Shown: one piece after another, positions 50,783 to 56,063 of the stretch
How the letters are laid out: every line of letters begins with the position of its first letter
Position numbering within the stretch: the stretch's first letter is position 1
Origin: Acidobacteriota bacterium
GTDB taxonomy: Bacteria > Acidobacteriota > Vicinamibacteria > Marinacidobacterales > Marinacidobacteraceae
NCBI GenBank assembly: GCA_009840635.1
Contig: VXNL01000074.1
Location: 28,156-92,155, forward strand
Length of the DNA stretch: 64,000 nucleotides
Reading direction: 5' to 3'
Made by a program: the position numbers and the translations under genes
The notes under the pieces: generated by a model
Databases searched by the model: none
Seen by the model: only the letters and a program-made list of their open reading frames with translations
Told to the model about the DNA's origin: nothing

Positions 50783-51550
50783 CTATTCGATCCGATACCG
50801 GAGCGGAAAGACCTCTCCGTCGCGATCTACCGTGAGCTCAACCTGGCTTGCGGTCTGAAACCGCTGCACGAGCACCGCCAGCGATTCGGCCCCCCGCACC
50901 TCCCTGCCGTTGACGGCCAGGAGCACGTCTCCGGGGACCAGCCCGGTTTCCCCGAGCACGGTGTCCGTCGGAAAGGCGACGAGTTCCAGCCCGACGACCT
51001 CGTTACCGAGCACCCGTGGGGCGACGACCGCGCTCGACAGGATTCGCGGGAGCTCCGACAGTAGCCGCAGCCGCACGTCATCCCGGGAGAACGTTCGGTC
51101 TCCCGTGTCCCGCGGAGGCCGAGAGGCCTGGGCATCGACCGCCGGGCGCTCCGGCGCTCCAGCTTCGGGACCTGCCGGAATCTCCGTGGGAGCCCGAGTC
51201 TGGACCGGGGTCTCCGGTATCGCGGGAGGCTCACCGCTCCCGGTCAGAACCGCCACCTCCGGAAGGCTCACTTCGAGCGACCGCCCGTCGGGCGCCTCGA
51301 GTTCCACGCCGTCGGCGAGTACCCGCACCACCGTGAATCCACGATGGGCCTCCCCGACCTGGAGCGCCAGCGGTCTTCCCTCGGCAAACCGGAGGAGCGC
51401 GACGCCTGCGTCCCGCTGCTGCACGACTCCGTAGAGCCGGATGGCAGGGCGTTCCGGGTTCCCGGCCTGCTGGCCGGGGGCCGGCTCACTGCCTGCCACA
51501 CCGGCCGCCAGGACGAATACGGCGCCGAGACGGCGATCCAGGAGGCGCAT
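50783..51550 (-). CDS. GspC-like protein (HR-like domain + C-terminal PDZ)
   Basis: IRLYGVV...ALL...QVGE...VLADGVEL (GspC HR-like) and GLVPGDVLLAVNG...LTVDRDGEVFPLRYRIE (PDZ). Confidence 0.7.
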   Translation of the reverse strand: MRLLDRRLGAVFVLAAGVAGSEPAPGQQAGNPERPAIRLYGVVQQRDAGVALLRFAEGRPLALQVGEAHRGFTVVRVLADGVELEAPDGRSLEVSLPEVAVLTGSGEPPAIPETPVQTRAPTEIPAGPEAGAPERPAVDAQASRPPRDTGDRTFSRDDVRLRLLSELPRILSSAVVAPRVLGNEVVGLELVAFPTDTVLGETGLVPGDVLLAVNGREVRGAESLAVLVQRFQTASQVELTVDRDGEVFPLRYRIE

Positions 51551-51614
51551 GGAGGCGGGCCTGGAGTGTACGGTGCGCCAGACAAGGACGCGGGGGGGTG
51601 GAGGAGGCCCCTGC

Positions 51615-51822
51615 CAGCAGCCGGTGGAAAAAGTCACGCGGCATTCCCGAGCTACGAAACATGCCGGCCGACGGTTGTCGCCGGCCGCCATGCTTCGTGC
51701 TCAAGGGGTCTCCGCGGGGCTCGAACTCTCGCCCCGCTTCGGAAGCGAACGGGACGGTGCATCCCGGCTGAACTGGGCCTCGCCGCTCTCGGTGCTCACG
51801 TCACTTTCTCCACCGGCTGCTA
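51615..51822 (-). repeat. Structured intergenic repeat family 1, variant copy E (core deleted, other hairpins inserted)
   Basis: AGCAGCCGGTGGAAAAAGTCACG...CGTCACTTTCTCCACCGGCTGCT; keeps TGCATCCCGGCTGAAC and GAACTGGGCCTCGCCGCTCTCGG of the other copies. Confidence 0.8.
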
Positions 51823-52061
51823 GACTTTTGTTGAGCACTCGGGTGTCGGCCCGTCCCTCTGGCGGACCGGCGCTCGCCGGCGCTTCCGATACGCGTTGCG
51901 ATAACCGGGCCATTTCCAGGCGGGGCCTTGCCTGGCGGAACTGGCCGGCCGCATCTCTCGCATCAGACCGTCGCCAGGCCCGGTGTCTCGGCGCCGTACC
52001 ACGCGTCGGCGGATCGTCCGCCCCGCGAGCGGCGCCGGGCCCTCGGGTCTCGAGTGCGAGC

Positions 52062-54251
52062 GTGCGCAACCCCGGAGACGCCGGACCGGACCTCACGGGG
52101 AGCGCCCCGGATTCGGCAATCCGGCCAACTGCCGTCCCCAAGACACCCGCACTCCAGCACATCTCCAACCAAGACCCATCAAAGCCCGCGGGGCGACCCG
52201 CCGGACCGGCCTCTTCCGTTCCGCCTCCGGCGGCGCCCGCCTATCCCAGGTCCCTCGCGAAGGGCCTGGAACGCGCGGCGAAGGCGCTCACCCTCTCGTG
52301 GCCCGGTCGATTCCTGCTCGGCGTGGGAGCCATCGCTTCCCTTTCCTCGGCGGGCGCGCTGCCCCGCTCGTGGACGGCGGATGCGTGGATGGTCTTCGCC
52401 ATCACCCTGGGCGCGGTACTCGTCTACTTCGGCCGCGACCTTCTCGGATGGCTCCTCTACCCCGTCCGGCGGAAGTTGGCAGTCTCCTATCTGTTCGTGG
52501 GGCTCTTGCCGGTTCTCCTGCTGACGTCCTTCTTTCTGCTCGCCTTCTATGTGGTTCTGGGGCTTTTCGGCTCCTATGCCTTCCAGGCGAACCTCGCGGC
52601 CCGGGGCACCGCCTTCGCTTCCGCGGCGCAGCAGGCGCTGCTCGAGATCGCACCGGATTCAGACGGGGCGGAGATCTCCCGCGGACTCCAGGGGGCCGTG
52701 GCCCGAGTCGCCCCCTTCGCGCCAGGAGCGGCAGCGTGGTACCTCGAGATCGAGGGCGGGCGCATCGTCCGGCTGACCGGATCGGACGCCGGAGGGCCGA
52801 TTCGCGAGTCCGATCCGGTGCCCGAATGGGCTCTCACCCCGTACGAGGGTGTGGTCCAGATGGAGGACACCGAGTGGTTCGGCGCCGTCTTTCCCGGACT
52901 CCGGGGGGACCGCCTGGCTGTCGTTCTGGCGCCGCTCGCTCCGCTCCTCGAAGCGAGCGCGCGGGAGGAGGACCTGATCGTGCGGACGGTCTGGGCGCTC
53001 TACCTCGGAGACCAGAACGAGGAGCCGCCGGCCCCGGCCCCCCTATCGGGGACGGACAACGATCGCTTCACGATCGACTGGGATGAGCCGCTGCTGCTGG
53101 AGGCCCTTCCCTGGGGTCCCGCGATGGAGGGAGGCACGGTCGTGGTGGCCATCGCATTCGCCCCGATTCACCTGATCCAGGGAACGACGAGCGGGCTCGC
53201 CGAGTCGGTGGCGATCAGCAATCCGGACTGGCGGAGCGGCCTGCTCCTGGTGCTCGGCGGACTGGGAATCGTCTTCGTGCTCATCGAGTGCGTCGCTTTC
53301 TCCGCCGGGCTCCGGCTCGCGCGGTCGATCACGCGGTCCGTCGAAGCCCTGAGCCAGGGGACCGAGCTGGTGCGGGGAGGCAATTTCGGCCATCAGGTAC
53401 GAGCCGCGTCCCCGGACCAGCTCGGCGAGCTCGCCAGCTCGTTCAACATCATGACGGCGAAGATCGCCGACGACATGGGACGCCTCCGGCGCGCGGCGGT
53501 CCTGGAGCAGGAGATGGAAACCGCGCGGCAGTCCCAGGCGCGCCTGCTCCCTCCCGAGGGATCCGTGTCCGTGCCGGGATTCGCGGTTTCCGCCGTCTGC
53601 CGCCCCGCAACCGAGGTCGGGGGCGACTACTACGACCTGATCCCGCTCGGGCCGAACCGGCTGGGGGTGGTGATTGCCGACGTCTCCGGCACTGGCACGC
53701 GGGCGGCGTTCATCATGGCCGAACTCAAGGGGCTGATGCTCGCCCTGAGCCGTATTCACGCGTCCCCCCGGCGGGTGCTGGTCGAAGCGAACCGGGTCCT
53801 GCACAACGCACTCGATTCACGAACCTTCATCACCATCACCTACGCGGTGTTCGACTCCGAGGCGGGGCGCGTGACGTTCGCGCGGGCGGGTCACAGTCCG
53901 CTCCTGCATCTGGTGCAGCAGGACGGACACTGGCCCCGCTCGGAAGCGCTCGCTCCGCCCGGGCTCGGGTTGGCCCTCGACCCGGGACCGGTCTTCGACG
54001 AAATCCTGGAAGAGCGCTCGGAACGCCTCCACGGCGGGGAAACCTGGCTCTTCTTCACGGACGGCGTCTCGGAAGCCATGAACGCCGAATCCGACATGTT
54101 CGGGGAGGAACGGCTGATGCGCCTTCTGGAGGAGGGGGCGGCCCTCACGCCGGCGGACCTGCAGCGCTCGGTCGAGGACGCCGTCCTGGAGTTCACCGGC
54201 GCCGAGACCCACACGGACGACCTGACGATGGTCCTGGTTCGGGTGAACTGA
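52062..54251 (+). CDS. Membrane HAMP + SpoIIE/PP2C (RsbU-like) serine phosphatase
   Basis: VRRKLAVSYLFVG TM segment, HAMP (SITRSVEAL...DQLGELASSFNIM), VGGDYYD, IADVSGTG, ARAGH, FTDGVSEA, DDLT. Start uncertain. Confidence 0.88.
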   Translation: MRNPGDAGPDLTGSAPDSAIRPTAVPKTPALQHISNQDPSKPAGRPAGPASSVPPPAAPAYPRSLAKGLERAAKALTLSWPGRFLLGVGAIASLSSAGALPRSWTADAWMVFAITLGAVLVYFGRDLLGWLLYPVRRKLAVSYLFVGLLPVLLLTSFFLLAFYVVLGLFGSYAFQANLAARGTAFASAAQQALLEIAPDSDGAEISRGLQGAVARVAPFAPGAAAWYLEIEGGRIVRLTGSDAGGPIRESDPVPEWALTPYEGVVQMEDTEWFGAVFPGLRGDRLAVVLAPLAPLLEASAREEDLIVRTVWALYLGDQNEEPPAPAPLSGTDNDRFTIDWDEPLLLEALPWGPAMEGGTVVVAIAFAPIHLIQGTTSGLAESVAISNPDWRSGLLLVLGGLGIVFVLIECVAFSAGLRLARSITRSVEALSQGTELVRGGNFGHQVRAASPDQLGELASSFNIMTAKIADDMGRLRRAAVLEQEMETARQSQARLLPPEGSVSVPGFAVSAVCRPATEVGGDYYDLIPLGPNRLGVVIADVSGTGTRAAFIMAELKGLMLALSRIHASPRRVLVEANRVLHNALDSRTFITITYAVFDSEAGRVTFARAGHSPLLHLVQQDGHWPRSEALAPPGLGLALDPGPVFDEILEERSERLHGGETWLFFTDGVSEAMNAESDMFGEERLMRLLEEGAALTPADLQRSVEDAVLEFTGAETHTDDLTMVLVRVN

Positions 54252-54252
54252 G

Positions 54253-55863
54253 ATGGGGCGCAGGCGACGCCGGCGCGCACCGGCGTCCAACCACCGGCCG
54301 GTGCTCGAGTTTGCCCGAGGGCTCGGATACCGCTTCCAGGACCTCGGGCTCCTCGAAGAAGCCCTGACCCACGGCTCGTATCGAAACGACCACGCGGTCG
54401 CGGACTACGAGAGGCTGGAATTCGTCGGCGACGCGGCGCTCGGACTTGTGGTGACCGAGTCCATGCACTTTCAGCGGCCGCAATGGGACGGGCAACGGCG
54501 ACAGGAGACCAAGTCGGAACTGGTGAGCAACCAGTCGCTGGCGGCGGCGGCCCGCGCTCTCGCGCTGGATGAGGGCATTCGCGTCGGCCGCGGCCGGAAC
54601 GCGGGGGAAGAGGTCCGATCCTCCGACCGTATCCTCGCCAACGTCTTCGAAGCCGTGCTCGGGGCGGCCTATCTCGACGGTGGGATGCCGGCGGCGCGCG
54701 GCGTCCTGGGCGCCGCATTCAGGAAGAAACTGCAGCGGCTCCGGCTGAAACCGCCGGAAGGTGCTCCGGGATGGGTCCGTCGAGCCGGCAGCGGACTGCG
54801 TTCCATCGGCCCGCTCGGGATCCGGTTCGCCCGCCGCCTTCTCCTGTTGCGCAAGAGAGTCGAACGGGCCCTCGGGTACACCTTCGCCAATCCCGGAATC
54901 CTGGCTGCGGCGCTGGACGCGGGCGACGCGGGACGGGAACGCACCCCGGGCGGCCGCCGGGGCAGAAAGCGGAGAACGAGGGGTCGCCGGGCCCCGGCGC
55001 CGGGGTCCACGGGGAGTGCCGAGCCCGCGAACCGGCCCGCACTGCGCTTCCTCGGGCGGGACGTCATGCATCTGGTGCTGGCGGAGGCGCTTCACGACCA
55101 TTTCCCCGAGTGGGACGAGGGGAGGATGACGCTCGCCCGGATGAGGCTGCAGAGCCGGGACTTCACGCGCACGCTGAACGAACACTGGTCACTCGGGGAC
55201 GGGGACGACGCCGCGGCCACCGCGGAGGCGGTGATGGGGGCGCTCTATCTGGACGGCAGCCTGGGGGCGGCGCGCCGCGCCCTGGGCCGGCCGTTCGCAA
55301 CCGCCCTCGAGGAGCTTCGGGATCCCGACCTGGAACTCCTCGACCCCAAGACGCTGCTCCAGAACCGCCTCGCCCAGGCCGGCAAGGACGCTCCCAAGTA
55401 CGAACCAAGACGCGCACCGCGGAACTCCCGGAGCAACGGCACGGTCTCCGTGACTCTGCGGCTGGCCGATGGACTCACCGAAACCGGTGTTGGCCGAGGC
55501 CTCAAGGAGGCCGAGAAGGACGCCGCGCGGCGGGCCCTCGAACGGCTCGAACGCCGGTCCGGCCGCAGGCGGAGCCGACCGGGACGAGGAACGGCCGCGG
55601 ATCCGCCCGCCGAAGCCGCCGGGCAGAGCCCAACCATCGTCCCCGCAACCGAGAACCCGAAGGGAGCCCTGCAGGAGGCGCTCGTGAAGAAAGAGGGTCG
55701 ACTCCCCGTGTATCGACTCATCTCCGAAAGCGGCCCGGAGCACGAAAAGACCTTCGTCATGGAAGTGCTGGCGGGCCGGCGCGCCCTCGGAAGAGGGATC
55801 GGTCCCAGCAAACGCAAGGCCGAGGCCGAGGCAGCGGCCGCCGCACTGGCCAGCGGGATCTGA
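54253..55863 (+). CDS. rnc: Ribonuclease III with two tandem RNase III domains and two dsRBDs
   Basis: Domain 1: LGYRF, ALTHGS, YERLEFVGD, FEAVLGAAYLDGG. Domain 2: LGYTF, ALRFLGRD, DEGRMT, AEAVMGALYLDG. dsRBDs DPKTLLQ...AEKDAA and NPKGALQE...KRKAEAEAA. Confidence 0.88.
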   Translation: MGRRRRRRAPASNHRPVLEFARGLGYRFQDLGLLEEALTHGSYRNDHAVADYERLEFVGDAALGLVVTESMHFQRPQWDGQRRQETKSELVSNQSLAAAARALALDEGIRVGRGRNAGEEVRSSDRILANVFEAVLGAAYLDGGMPAARGVLGAAFRKKLQRLRLKPPEGAPGWVRRAGSGLRSIGPLGIRFARRLLLLRKRVERALGYTFANPGILAAALDAGDAGRERTPGGRRGRKRRTRGRRAPAPGSTGSAEPANRPALRFLGRDVMHLVLAEALHDHFPEWDEGRMTLARMRLQSRDFTRTLNEHWSLGDGDDAAATAEAVMGALYLDGSLGAARRALGRPFATALEELRDPDLELLDPKTLLQNRLAQAGKDAPKYEPRRAPRNSRSNGTVSVTLRLADGLTETGVGRGLKEAEKDAARRALERLERRSGRRRSRPGRGTAADPPAEAAGQSPTIVPATENPKGALQEALVKKEGRLPVYRLISESGPEHEKTFVMEVLAGRRALGRGIGPSKRKAEAEAAAAALASGI

Positions 55864-55869
55864 TCCGGT

Positions 55870-55960
55870 GGCCTCCCGGCTGAAACAGGCCGCGACGCGA
55901 CCGCCATCCGTGCGCTTCAGTTGGCGGACAAGGGGTATTCCTCTCTCACGCGCCATGCCG
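55870..55960 (-). repeat. Degenerate relic of repeat family 1 (copy F), directly after rnc
   Basis: GCCTCCCGGCTGAAAC and GGTATTCCTCTCTCACGCGCCATGCC align to GCATCCCGGTTGAACC and GGTATTCCTCCCTCACGCGCCTTGTC of copy A; outer stem missing. Confidence 0.6.
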
Positions 55961-56063
55961 GGCAATGGCCCGGAGCCGCGCCGTATACTCCGCGCTCCGC
56001 GCCGGCGGGACGGAGGCGGCAGGGAAGGAGCCGGCGAGAACGACCGGAAAGGCGAGGGGAGAT

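Follow-up and report, generated by a model that had tools for sequence, protein, structure and literature searches.

The ribonuclease III (RNase III) of bacteria is a homodimer that brings together two nuclease domains and two double-stranded RNA (dsRNA)-binding domains (dsRBDs). Engineered heterodimers of the E. coli enzyme with one inactive subunit reportedly nick dsRNA, findings attributed to Meng and Nicholson in 2008 and to Conrad and colleagues in 2002. Nicking by RNase III heterodimers that hold a single functional site is likewise described in sections of PMC3867540, and single-site logic is proposed there, as in part of PMC9508840, for the nucleases of the trypanosome editosome too. 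Tandem nuclease domains that form an intramolecular dimer are assigned, in the relevant passages of PMC7827160, to the Drosha and Dicer subfamilies, with Dicer said in the same passages to have arisen only in eukaryotes, and in these enzymes both domains cut, one per strand (sections of PMC7827160 and PMC7049713). Here we describe a 64,000-nucleotide stretch of Acidobacteriota DNA (hereafter the window, meaning the whole stretch that was analysed) in which one gene encodes a single chain with two RNase III domains and two dsRBDs, where, judging from its residues, probably one cutting site remains in place of the two of ordinary bacterial RNase III.

The open reading frame (54253..55863, + strand) specifies 536 amino acids (aa) and a stop codon in the order RNase III - RNase III - dsRBD - dsRBD (hereafter R1, R2, dsRBD1 and dsRBD2), the layout that a preliminary description of this DNA had proposed and that both Pfam and TIGR02191 now recover. 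Across the whole protein, Pfam finds two stretches for each of Ribonucleas_3_3 (E 3.8e-33), Ribonuclease_3 (E 4.6e-27) and dsrm (E 6.9e-23), and the curated cut-offs are exceeded throughout (PF14622, 114.8 bits against 35; PF00636, 95.2 against 27; TIGR02191, 236.9 against 166.25), which places the protein within the RNase III superfamily. Its principal features are the following:

54253..55863, + strand: whole gene, single-chain RNase III (open reading frame; TIGR02191 236.9 bits; sole RNase III match in the genome)
54295..54732, + strand: RNase III domain 1 (R1), aa 15-160, predicted to be catalytically competent (Pfam E 3.4e-27)
54409..54432, + strand: R1 signature ERLEFVGD, aa 53-60, with E53, E56 and D60 corresponding to E. 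coli E38, E41 and D45 (direct sequence reading)
54640..54651, + strand: N130-V-F-E133, equivalents of E. coli D114 and E117, within ANVFEA at aa 129-134 (N130 and E133 invariant)
54844..55320, + strand: RNase III domain 2 (R2), aa 198-356, predicted pseudo-nuclease (hhalign; alignment to E. coli and T. maritima RNase III; block means of the model confidence pLDDT 85-95 over aa 261-350)
55039..55062, + strand: degenerate R2 signature ALRFLGRD, aa 263-270, with R265 at the E41 and R269 at the D45 position (mapping to 7r97)
55210..55227, + strand: R2 motif AATAEA, aa 320-325, with A322 at the D114 and E325 at the E117 position
55336..55563, + strand: dsRBD1, aa 362-437, partly degenerate, no GPxH loop (dsrm E 4.3e-5; collinear with R2 on TIGR02191)
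55648..55860, + strand: dsRBD2, aa 466-536, canonical, with GPEHEKT and KRKAEAEAA (dsrm E 7.5e-16)

Repeating the Pfam scan on four separate pieces of the protein returned an RNase III domain at aa 32-153 (E 3.4e-27) and a strong dsrm match at aa 469-533 (dsRBD2, E 7.5e-16), together with a weak dsrm match near aa 373-433 (dsRBD1, E 4.3e-5, 24.4 bits, cut-off 23) and, at aa 263-314 (residues 93-144 of the second piece), a match to the N-terminal half only of PF00636 (E 1.6e-7, 32.5 bits, cut-off 27). By hhalign, R1 and R2 are homologous (probability 98.8% over 126 columns), and profile comparison relates dsRBD1 to dsRBD2 in the same way (probability 95.8%). TIGR02191, the NCBIfam equivalog model of RNase III, aligns to three stretches that are collinear and share a frame (model positions 3-143, 36-219 and 149-217). 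Because R2 and dsRBD1 are covered by model positions 36-219, the two together make up approximately one nearly complete rnc unit, and this unit is preceded by one nuclease domain and followed by a final dsRBD. Two domains of each kind in 536 aa contrast with the one nuclease domain and one dsRBD in ~230 aa of class 1 enzymes. The eukaryotic accessory domains and eukaryotic descent of classes 2 and 3 are likewise missing, and Pfam on the whole protein detected no PAZ, helicase, platform or Pro-rich/RS domain at E <= 1.

The four catalytic motifs, as well as a basic insert in R2 (GGRRGRKRRTRGRR, aa 233-246), lie where the preliminary description had placed them. When R2 is mapped onto E. coli RNase III (7r97) by HMMER alignment, E41 becomes R265, D45 becomes R269 and D114 becomes A322; Glu persists at the E117 (E325) and E65 (E289) positions. 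R2 has thus lost three of its four metal ligands, as had been proposed, two of them replaced by Arg. In R1, mapped via the same alignment and hhalign, E53, E56, D60 and E133 are present and N130 occupies the D114 position. The full carboxylate set (signature plus the E117 equivalent, a Glu described as essential in RNase III in sections of PMC3867540) is therefore found in R1 and not in R2. These residues are fixed: E53, R54, L55, E56, F57, G59, D60, N130 and E133 of R1 are invariant in 33 of 33 aligned family members, as are A263, R265, F266, L267, G268, R269, D270 and E325 of R2, with position 322 variable. The equivalents of E41, D45 and D114 are absent from R2 in all 33, and this separates the family from class 2 and 3 enzymes, in which both domains are active.

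The Asn at the D114 position, which had been noticed earlier, is present but is no sign of weakness in R1: human Drosha RIIIa has the same Asn in the aligned motif, and in two sister families 13 of 13 canonical RNase III genes with a single nuclease domain read L[SRA]AN.[LF]EA. Among genes fetched from other families of the class, Asp stands at this position in six of seven, the seventh having no valid motif match. Given that the Asn is common to all 13 sister-family genes, it is an order-level trait older than the duplication, and, as far as the residues tell, Asn130 is no defect of R1 and is consistent with activity.

A search of 5.8 billion proteins yielded 76 matches, of which 73 are the same protein type (E <= 1e-80; 344-674 aa, some partial) from Acidobacteria metagenome-assembled genomes and the last three are ordinary RNase III; where the family proteins are named at all, they are deposited as ‘hypothetical protein’. 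The alignment of 33 comprises P0001 and 32 of these matches, leaving out near-identical sequences, four fragments and the three ordinary enzymes, and reaches down to 52% identity with the window protein. In the wider alignment, 55 of 146 R1 columns are invariant and mean pairwise amino acid identity is 0.74 for R1, 0.73 for dsRBD2, 0.65 for R2 and 0.62 for dsRBD1. The ratio of non-synonymous to synonymous change (dN/dS; Nei-Gojobori, 15 genes, namely the window gene and L029-L042, 103-105 pairs) divides the domains into the same two pairs, at 0.057 for dsRBD2, 0.068 for R1, 0.136 for the R2 core (aa 259-356) and 0.198 for dsRBD1, and rises to 0.30 in the inter-domain linker, 0.53 in the basic insert and 0.69 in the linker between the dsRBDs. 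All four domains are under purifying selection, and the degenerate R2 is maintained rather than decaying. The tightly constrained half is R1 plus dsRBD2 and the looser half R2 plus dsRBD1, and the GPxH loop, kept in dsRBD2 and in sister-family enzymes, is lost from dsRBD1.

Contigs from elsewhere carry the same gene. One of 9,271 nucleotides (nt) from another study spans window positions 54000-56000 with 16 differences and no gaps, and a second independent contig covers 54123-56000 with 6 differences. In addition, a single contig from a metatranscriptomic library (run X19), from a ~92%-identical strain, covers 54000-55865 and differs by a 9-nt in-frame insertion in the Arg-rich insert (window 54998-55002), which fits the family-wide length variation there; co-transcription with the upstream gene was not seen in it.

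To the pairing of the two nuclease domains, structure prediction offers a consistent answer. Model 1, computed for the window protein with AlphaFold2 from the family alignment (pLDDT 77.8, predicted TM-score (pTM) 0.62), is confident for both nuclease domains and both dsRBDs and shows aa 224-257 and aa 438-465 as disordered. Used as a Foldseek query, it ranks Drosha and Dicer chains first. Its residues ~4-436 superpose on Drosha 5b16 (Z 27.8, 363 residues aligned, 9.5 A), on Dicer 7zpi in its dicing state (Z 27.1, 355 aligned, 4.7 A), on DCL3 7vg2 (Z 26.7, 361 aligned, 4.2 A) and on Giardia Dicer 2ffl (Z 21.3, 287 aligned, 4.1 A). Against single nuclease domains of bacterial enzymes, this model gives only Z 17-21 over ~143 residues, and the two models together Z 15-21. 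For a 52%-identical family member, model 2 (pLDDT 80.7, pTM 0.67) matches Drosha 6v5b over its residues 14-422 (Z 25.7, 378 aligned, 4.1 A), and the R2-dsRBD1 unit of this model alone aligns with an entire E. coli RNase III protomer from a post-cleavage complex (7r97; Z 14.7, 203 aligned, 3.3 A). In both models R1, R2 and dsRBD1 superpose jointly on Drosha/Dicer cores (Z 25-28, 355-378 residues). That the two domains can be aligned simultaneously with enzymes of one chain means that R1 lies against R2 in the models, and the intramolecular R1-R2 pseudo-dimer that the preliminary description had envisaged is well supported at the level of prediction. In its predicted form, the protein thus shares with classes 2 and 3 two RNase III domains dimerising within one chain.

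Set beside known systems, the protein is Drosha/Dicer-like in predicted fold and in plan, probably editosome-like in catalytic logic and a bacterial rnc by descent. It has in common with class 1 enzymes (E. coli Rnc, Aquifex aeolicus) the nuclease fold, signature motif, dsRBD, genomic role and rnc locus, but their ~230-aa chains homodimerise with two equivalent sites, whereas here a 536-aa chain carries one site that appears dead and the symmetry would be broken. With Drosha and Dicer, including the minimal Giardia Dicer, it shares the tandem RIIIa-RIIIb followed by a dsRBD, on which the predicted intramolecular dimer superposes, and with Drosha RIIIa in particular the Asn of R1. Unlike in those enzymes, where both domains cut, R2 is without three of its four ligands; the accessory PAZ, helicase, platform and Pro-rich region are absent, a second dsRBD is present, and the origin is bacterial and recent (at family level), hence convergent. 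The KREN1-3/KREPB editosome pairs combine an active and a degenerate RNase III domain into a single site that cuts one duplex strand (sections of PMC3867540 and PMC9508840), and the sequence pattern here fits theirs, with the pairing predicted. However, KREN and KREPB are separate polypeptides in a large eukaryotic complex with Zn-finger and PUF modules, as opposed to one bacterial chain with dsRBDs. The engineered E. coli heterodimers are artificial and have a single working site in each dimer; the protein described here would be their counterpart in nature, and a fixed one. In the open-access PMC and bioRxiv literature, we found neither a bacterial tandem RNase III nor this protein family described, and no paper on Marinacidobacterium.

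The carrier family, marine and associated with sponges, belongs to the class Vicinamibacteria, with some of its named records labelled Candidatus Marinacidobacterium, and the sequencing runs that hold the sequence are sponge metagenomes. The preliminary description had raised the question of a separate canonical rnc. There is none in the 92%-complete window genome, in which the tandem gene is the only RNase III/PF00636 match. Among 41 relatives (a sample that includes a genome flagged as unpublished, G033, on which no claim rests), all 25 genomes of the carrier family, the window genome included and seven genera represented, have the three-stretch form as their only match, one of them with four stretches. 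In the two sister families, 15 of 16 genomes have one full-length canonical match, the sixteenth being 73% complete. A class-wide sample of 121 genomes at completeness >= 85%, G033 excluded, gave the same picture: the tandem form is the only match in 25 of 25 carrier-family genomes and occurs in none of the 96 genomes of 17 other families, 94 of which have a match (in two of these it is split, once across contig ends and once across frames). The tandem form is spread in this sample over at least six genera.

The locus, too, is that of an ordinary rnc. A gene for a HAMP-SpoIIE phosphatase lies directly 5' of the canonical rnc in three sister-family genomes, as it does in the window, with acyl-CoA dehydrogenase and GlpX genes also near rnc in one of the three, and the order-specific motifs AN.[LF]EA (in R1) and GPEH(R/E)KT (in dsRBD2) recur in the sister-family canonical genes. 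From the same locus and these shared motifs it follows that the tandem gene is a rebuilt rnc ortholog, present as the sole copy and fixed at the base of one family.

As to how it was rebuilt, the R-R-D-D order excludes a single whole-gene tandem duplication as the source, in agreement with the earlier remark that this is no simple head-to-tail duplication. Two routes remain, namely two partial tandem duplications (of the nuclease domain, then of the dsRBD) or a whole copy inserted into the inter-domain linker, and they are not separable by sequence because the copies were identical at birth under either. Some members (P0055, P0061, P0062 and genome G022, at G022:C1:2471188-2473122) carry a third, dsRBD2-like dsRBD, giving R-R-D-D-D in 657-674 aa; dsRBD duplication thus occurs in the lineage, and we infer that the stepwise route is the favoured one. 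A head-to-tail R-D-R-D origin with a decayed first dsRBD was also considered and is unsupported, since the R1-R2 linker (aa 158-201) has no likeness by hhalign to dsRBD1 or dsRBD2 (probability <=0.1%). A quick-method domain tree of 73 rows (15 R1 and 15 R2 from 15 of the 33 members, 13 sister-family, 7 same-class and 23 broad canonical sequences, the last from 25 sampled with 2 dropped for lack of the motif) recovers R1 and R2 each as monophyletic with support 100 on long stems (0.94 and 1.1); it gives no supported placement of either relative to sister-family rnc, and neither a date nor a donor.

Taken as a whole, the account that we consider best, and to which we would give a modest edge over an even chance, is that the family's own housekeeping rnc has been rebuilt into a single-chain, one-site pseudo-dimer that is strand-selective on asymmetric substrates. 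Internal duplications would have turned it into one polypeptide, most economically read as a covalently linked ‘dimer’ with all four parts of the homodimer, whose halves were then free to diverge. R1 would pack on R2 inside a single chain, in the manner of Drosha and Dicer, and the pair would create one valley for dsRNA binding, with a complete metal site in R1 only (E56, D60, N130 and E133). In R2, which retains the bridging Glu and the F266-L267-G268 interface stretch but where the ligands have given way to the invariant R265 and R269 and a variable small residue, the second strand would be held without hydrolysis, the two arginines presumably contacting phosphates along the backbone of this uncut strand. 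Given the single intact site, and given that published single-site heterodimers nick, breakage of one strand per binding event would be the expected chemistry, and the nick or asymmetric cut suggested in the preliminary description would be a reasonable expectation. In the cell, the enzyme could then act as a strand-selective nickase on asymmetric substrates, e.g., pre-rRNA stems or mRNA hairpins, although such selectivity would depend on the asymmetry of the substrate. The contrast between a constrained half (R1 and dsRBD2) and a relaxed half (R2 and dsRBD1) would mirror this division of labour.

Several points weigh against this account. The competence of R1 and the loss of R2 are predictions from residues, and R2 keeps E325, E289 and, next to R269, D270, which might conceivably make up a non-canonical metal site. 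The dimer is deduced from superposition on the single-chain structures of Drosha and Dicer, on which AlphaFold was trained, and monomer prediction cannot show pairing in trans. The X19 contig is a hint of expression from an RNA library that may contain DNA. dsRNA has near two-fold symmetry, so that two binding events would let an enzyme with a single site cut both strands, making ordinary end products possible. Finally, two closed genomes of the family, like a sister genome, have retained the long helices that flank 16S and 23S rRNA, which means that the classical double-cut substrates persist; being alike in the family and the sister genome, these stems cannot tell a nick from a double cut.

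The last two points lead to a different view of the same core, in which an intramolecular one-site enzyme without strand selectivity binds the duplex in both orientations and cuts in turn, as an ordinary, perhaps slower, double-strand RNase III with the dead domain as a structural partner. That the protein is the sole RNase III of its genome and that the 16S/23S processing helices are long and near-perfect speak for it, as does the observation, in sections of PMC3867540, that strand choice is often set by substrate structure. We nevertheless regard it as unlikely, if worth keeping in mind, because R265 and R269 are invariant, because purifying selection on R2 and dsRBD1 (dN/dS 0.14-0.20) is stronger than a passive scaffold seems to need, and because the asymmetry is fixed across at least six genera. 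Less plausible again is that R1 pairs in trans with the R1 of a second chain into a canonical two-site centre making ordinary double-strand cuts, with R2-dsRBD1 as an extra RNA-binding or regulatory module. R1 does keep the full signature helix, the dimer interface of canonical enzymes, and monomer predictions leave room for pairing between chains. On the other hand, both AlphaFold2 models pack R1 on R2 in the Drosha/Dicer arrangement, the interface part F266-L267-G268 of R2 is invariant though its catalytic residues are lost, which fits R2 as the dimer partner, and the two-RNase-III-domain chains covered in passages of PMC7827160 form their cleavage centre by intramolecular dimerisation. A complex prediction for two copies of aa 1-362 scored 0.00 and 0.01 (mark 0.42), a result that counts neither for nor against binding.

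Resemblance to Drosha and Dicer, the Drosha RIIIa-type Asn in R1 and a life within sponges could also point to horizontal transfer of the tandem core from a eukaryote, e.g., from a Drosha-like gene of the sponge host, which we judge very improbable. The locus is that of the canonical rnc of the sister families, whose genes also have the Asn and GPEH(R/E)KT; phmmer (best domain) scores R1 at 62-79 bits against sister-family rnc and at 43-55 against PAZ-bearing Dicer-like proteins, and R2 at up to 40.7 bits against bacterial enzymes and at 8-12 against Dicer-like ones, and in a PDB search with R2-dsRBD1 the enzymes of E. coli (49.6 bits) and T. maritima (45.5) come out ahead of Drosha (34.6). 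The absence of PAZ, helicase or Pro-rich domains by Pfam speaks against such a transfer as well. The chance that the gene is an artefact, either an assembly chimera or a decaying duplicated pseudogene, is negligible: the same open frame is found in 25 of 25 family genomes, some of them single-contig, the gap-free 9,271-nt contig of another study spans the gene, and dN/dS is well below 1 in all four domains. This rules out chance as well as an error of assembly.

The rebuilt one-site rnc would indicate that bacteria can arrive at the Drosha/Dicer ground plan through a small number of internal duplications, an essential-type bacterial gene having crossed the class line by itself and then silenced one of its sites. 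A stronger statement would be that, throughout a bacterial family, the place of the housekeeping RNase III has been taken by a natural dsRNA nickase with strand selectivity. Its origin would be independent of Drosha and Dicer yet follow the course suggested for those enzymes, from internal duplication through an intramolecular dimer to divergence of the halves, and its second site would have become an arginine-lined, non-cleaving strand holder; we offer this tentatively, at somewhat less than even chances. Were it true, the family would provide a living bacterial model for the evolution of class 2 and 3 RNase III, as well as a compact single-chain enzyme for cutting a duplex on one chosen strand. 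The protein is of interest to specialists in RNase III and RNA processing as a natural test of a one-site RNase III in rRNA and mRNA processing in vivo, and it could supply a small single-chain dsRNA nickase. For annotation it carries a warning, in that entries labelled ‘hypothetical protein’ are the sole RNase III of their genomes.

The remaining features of the gene and its surroundings are:

54253..54294, + strand: Arg-rich N-terminal tail, aa 1-14, MGRRRRRRAPASNH (in most of the 33 aligned members; pLDDT <50 for aa 1-11)
54733..54843, + strand: inter-domain linker, aa 161-197 (predicted helices H174-183 and H185-196)
54919..55026, + strand: disordered Arg/Gly-rich insert in R2, aa 223-258 (pLDDT <50 for aa 224-257; length very variable in the alignment)
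55564..55647, + strand: disordered linker between the dsRBDs, aa 438-465 (pLDDT <50)
51441..54251, + strand: upstream gene for a phosphatase with HAMP and SpoIIE/PP2C domains (Pfam HAMP aa 625-675, SpoIIE aa 738-935)

The ATG of the rnc gene lies one base past the TGA of this upstream gene (TGA G ATG, window 54249-54255). The upstream open reading frame of 936 aa has probably been called too long, as the alignment of relatives begins only at ~aa 238-340 and HAMP, the first Pfam domain, only at aa 625; translation probably begins at some point past 51441, and the first ~700 bases (window 51441-52400) may be non-coding or something else. An Rfam scan of the whole window gave no match at gathering score.

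Other two-domain RNase III proteins occur in metagenome catalogues (P0078, P0110, P0079, P0085, P0113, P0086 and P0090). They are arranged as R-D-R-D, or as R-R-D with one dsRBD, are not close relatives of the present family and are mostly singletons on short contigs. In three R-R-D proteins of 437-439 aa (P0079, P0085 and P0113) the first signature is intact and the second degenerate by motif, with the reverse order in P0086, and the live-plus-dead tandem arrangement may thus have arisen several times. In the species-genome collection, no relative of P0113 was found, and P0086 returned only ordinary single-domain rnc genes. A further metagenomic protein of 2391 aa, P0080, joins a ResIII helicase, two RNase III domains, two dsRBDs and a sigma-70 region 3, and may be a mis-assembly; the combination of helicase and RNase III is called a eukaryotic signature in passages of PMC7827160. 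With regard to the rRNA genes, Rfam detects no group I intron in the 23S rRNA of the two closed tandem-family genomes, and two in the 23S rRNA gene of the sister-family genome G036 (L160 4893-5147 and 5230-5527, at 69.3 and 56.3 bits).

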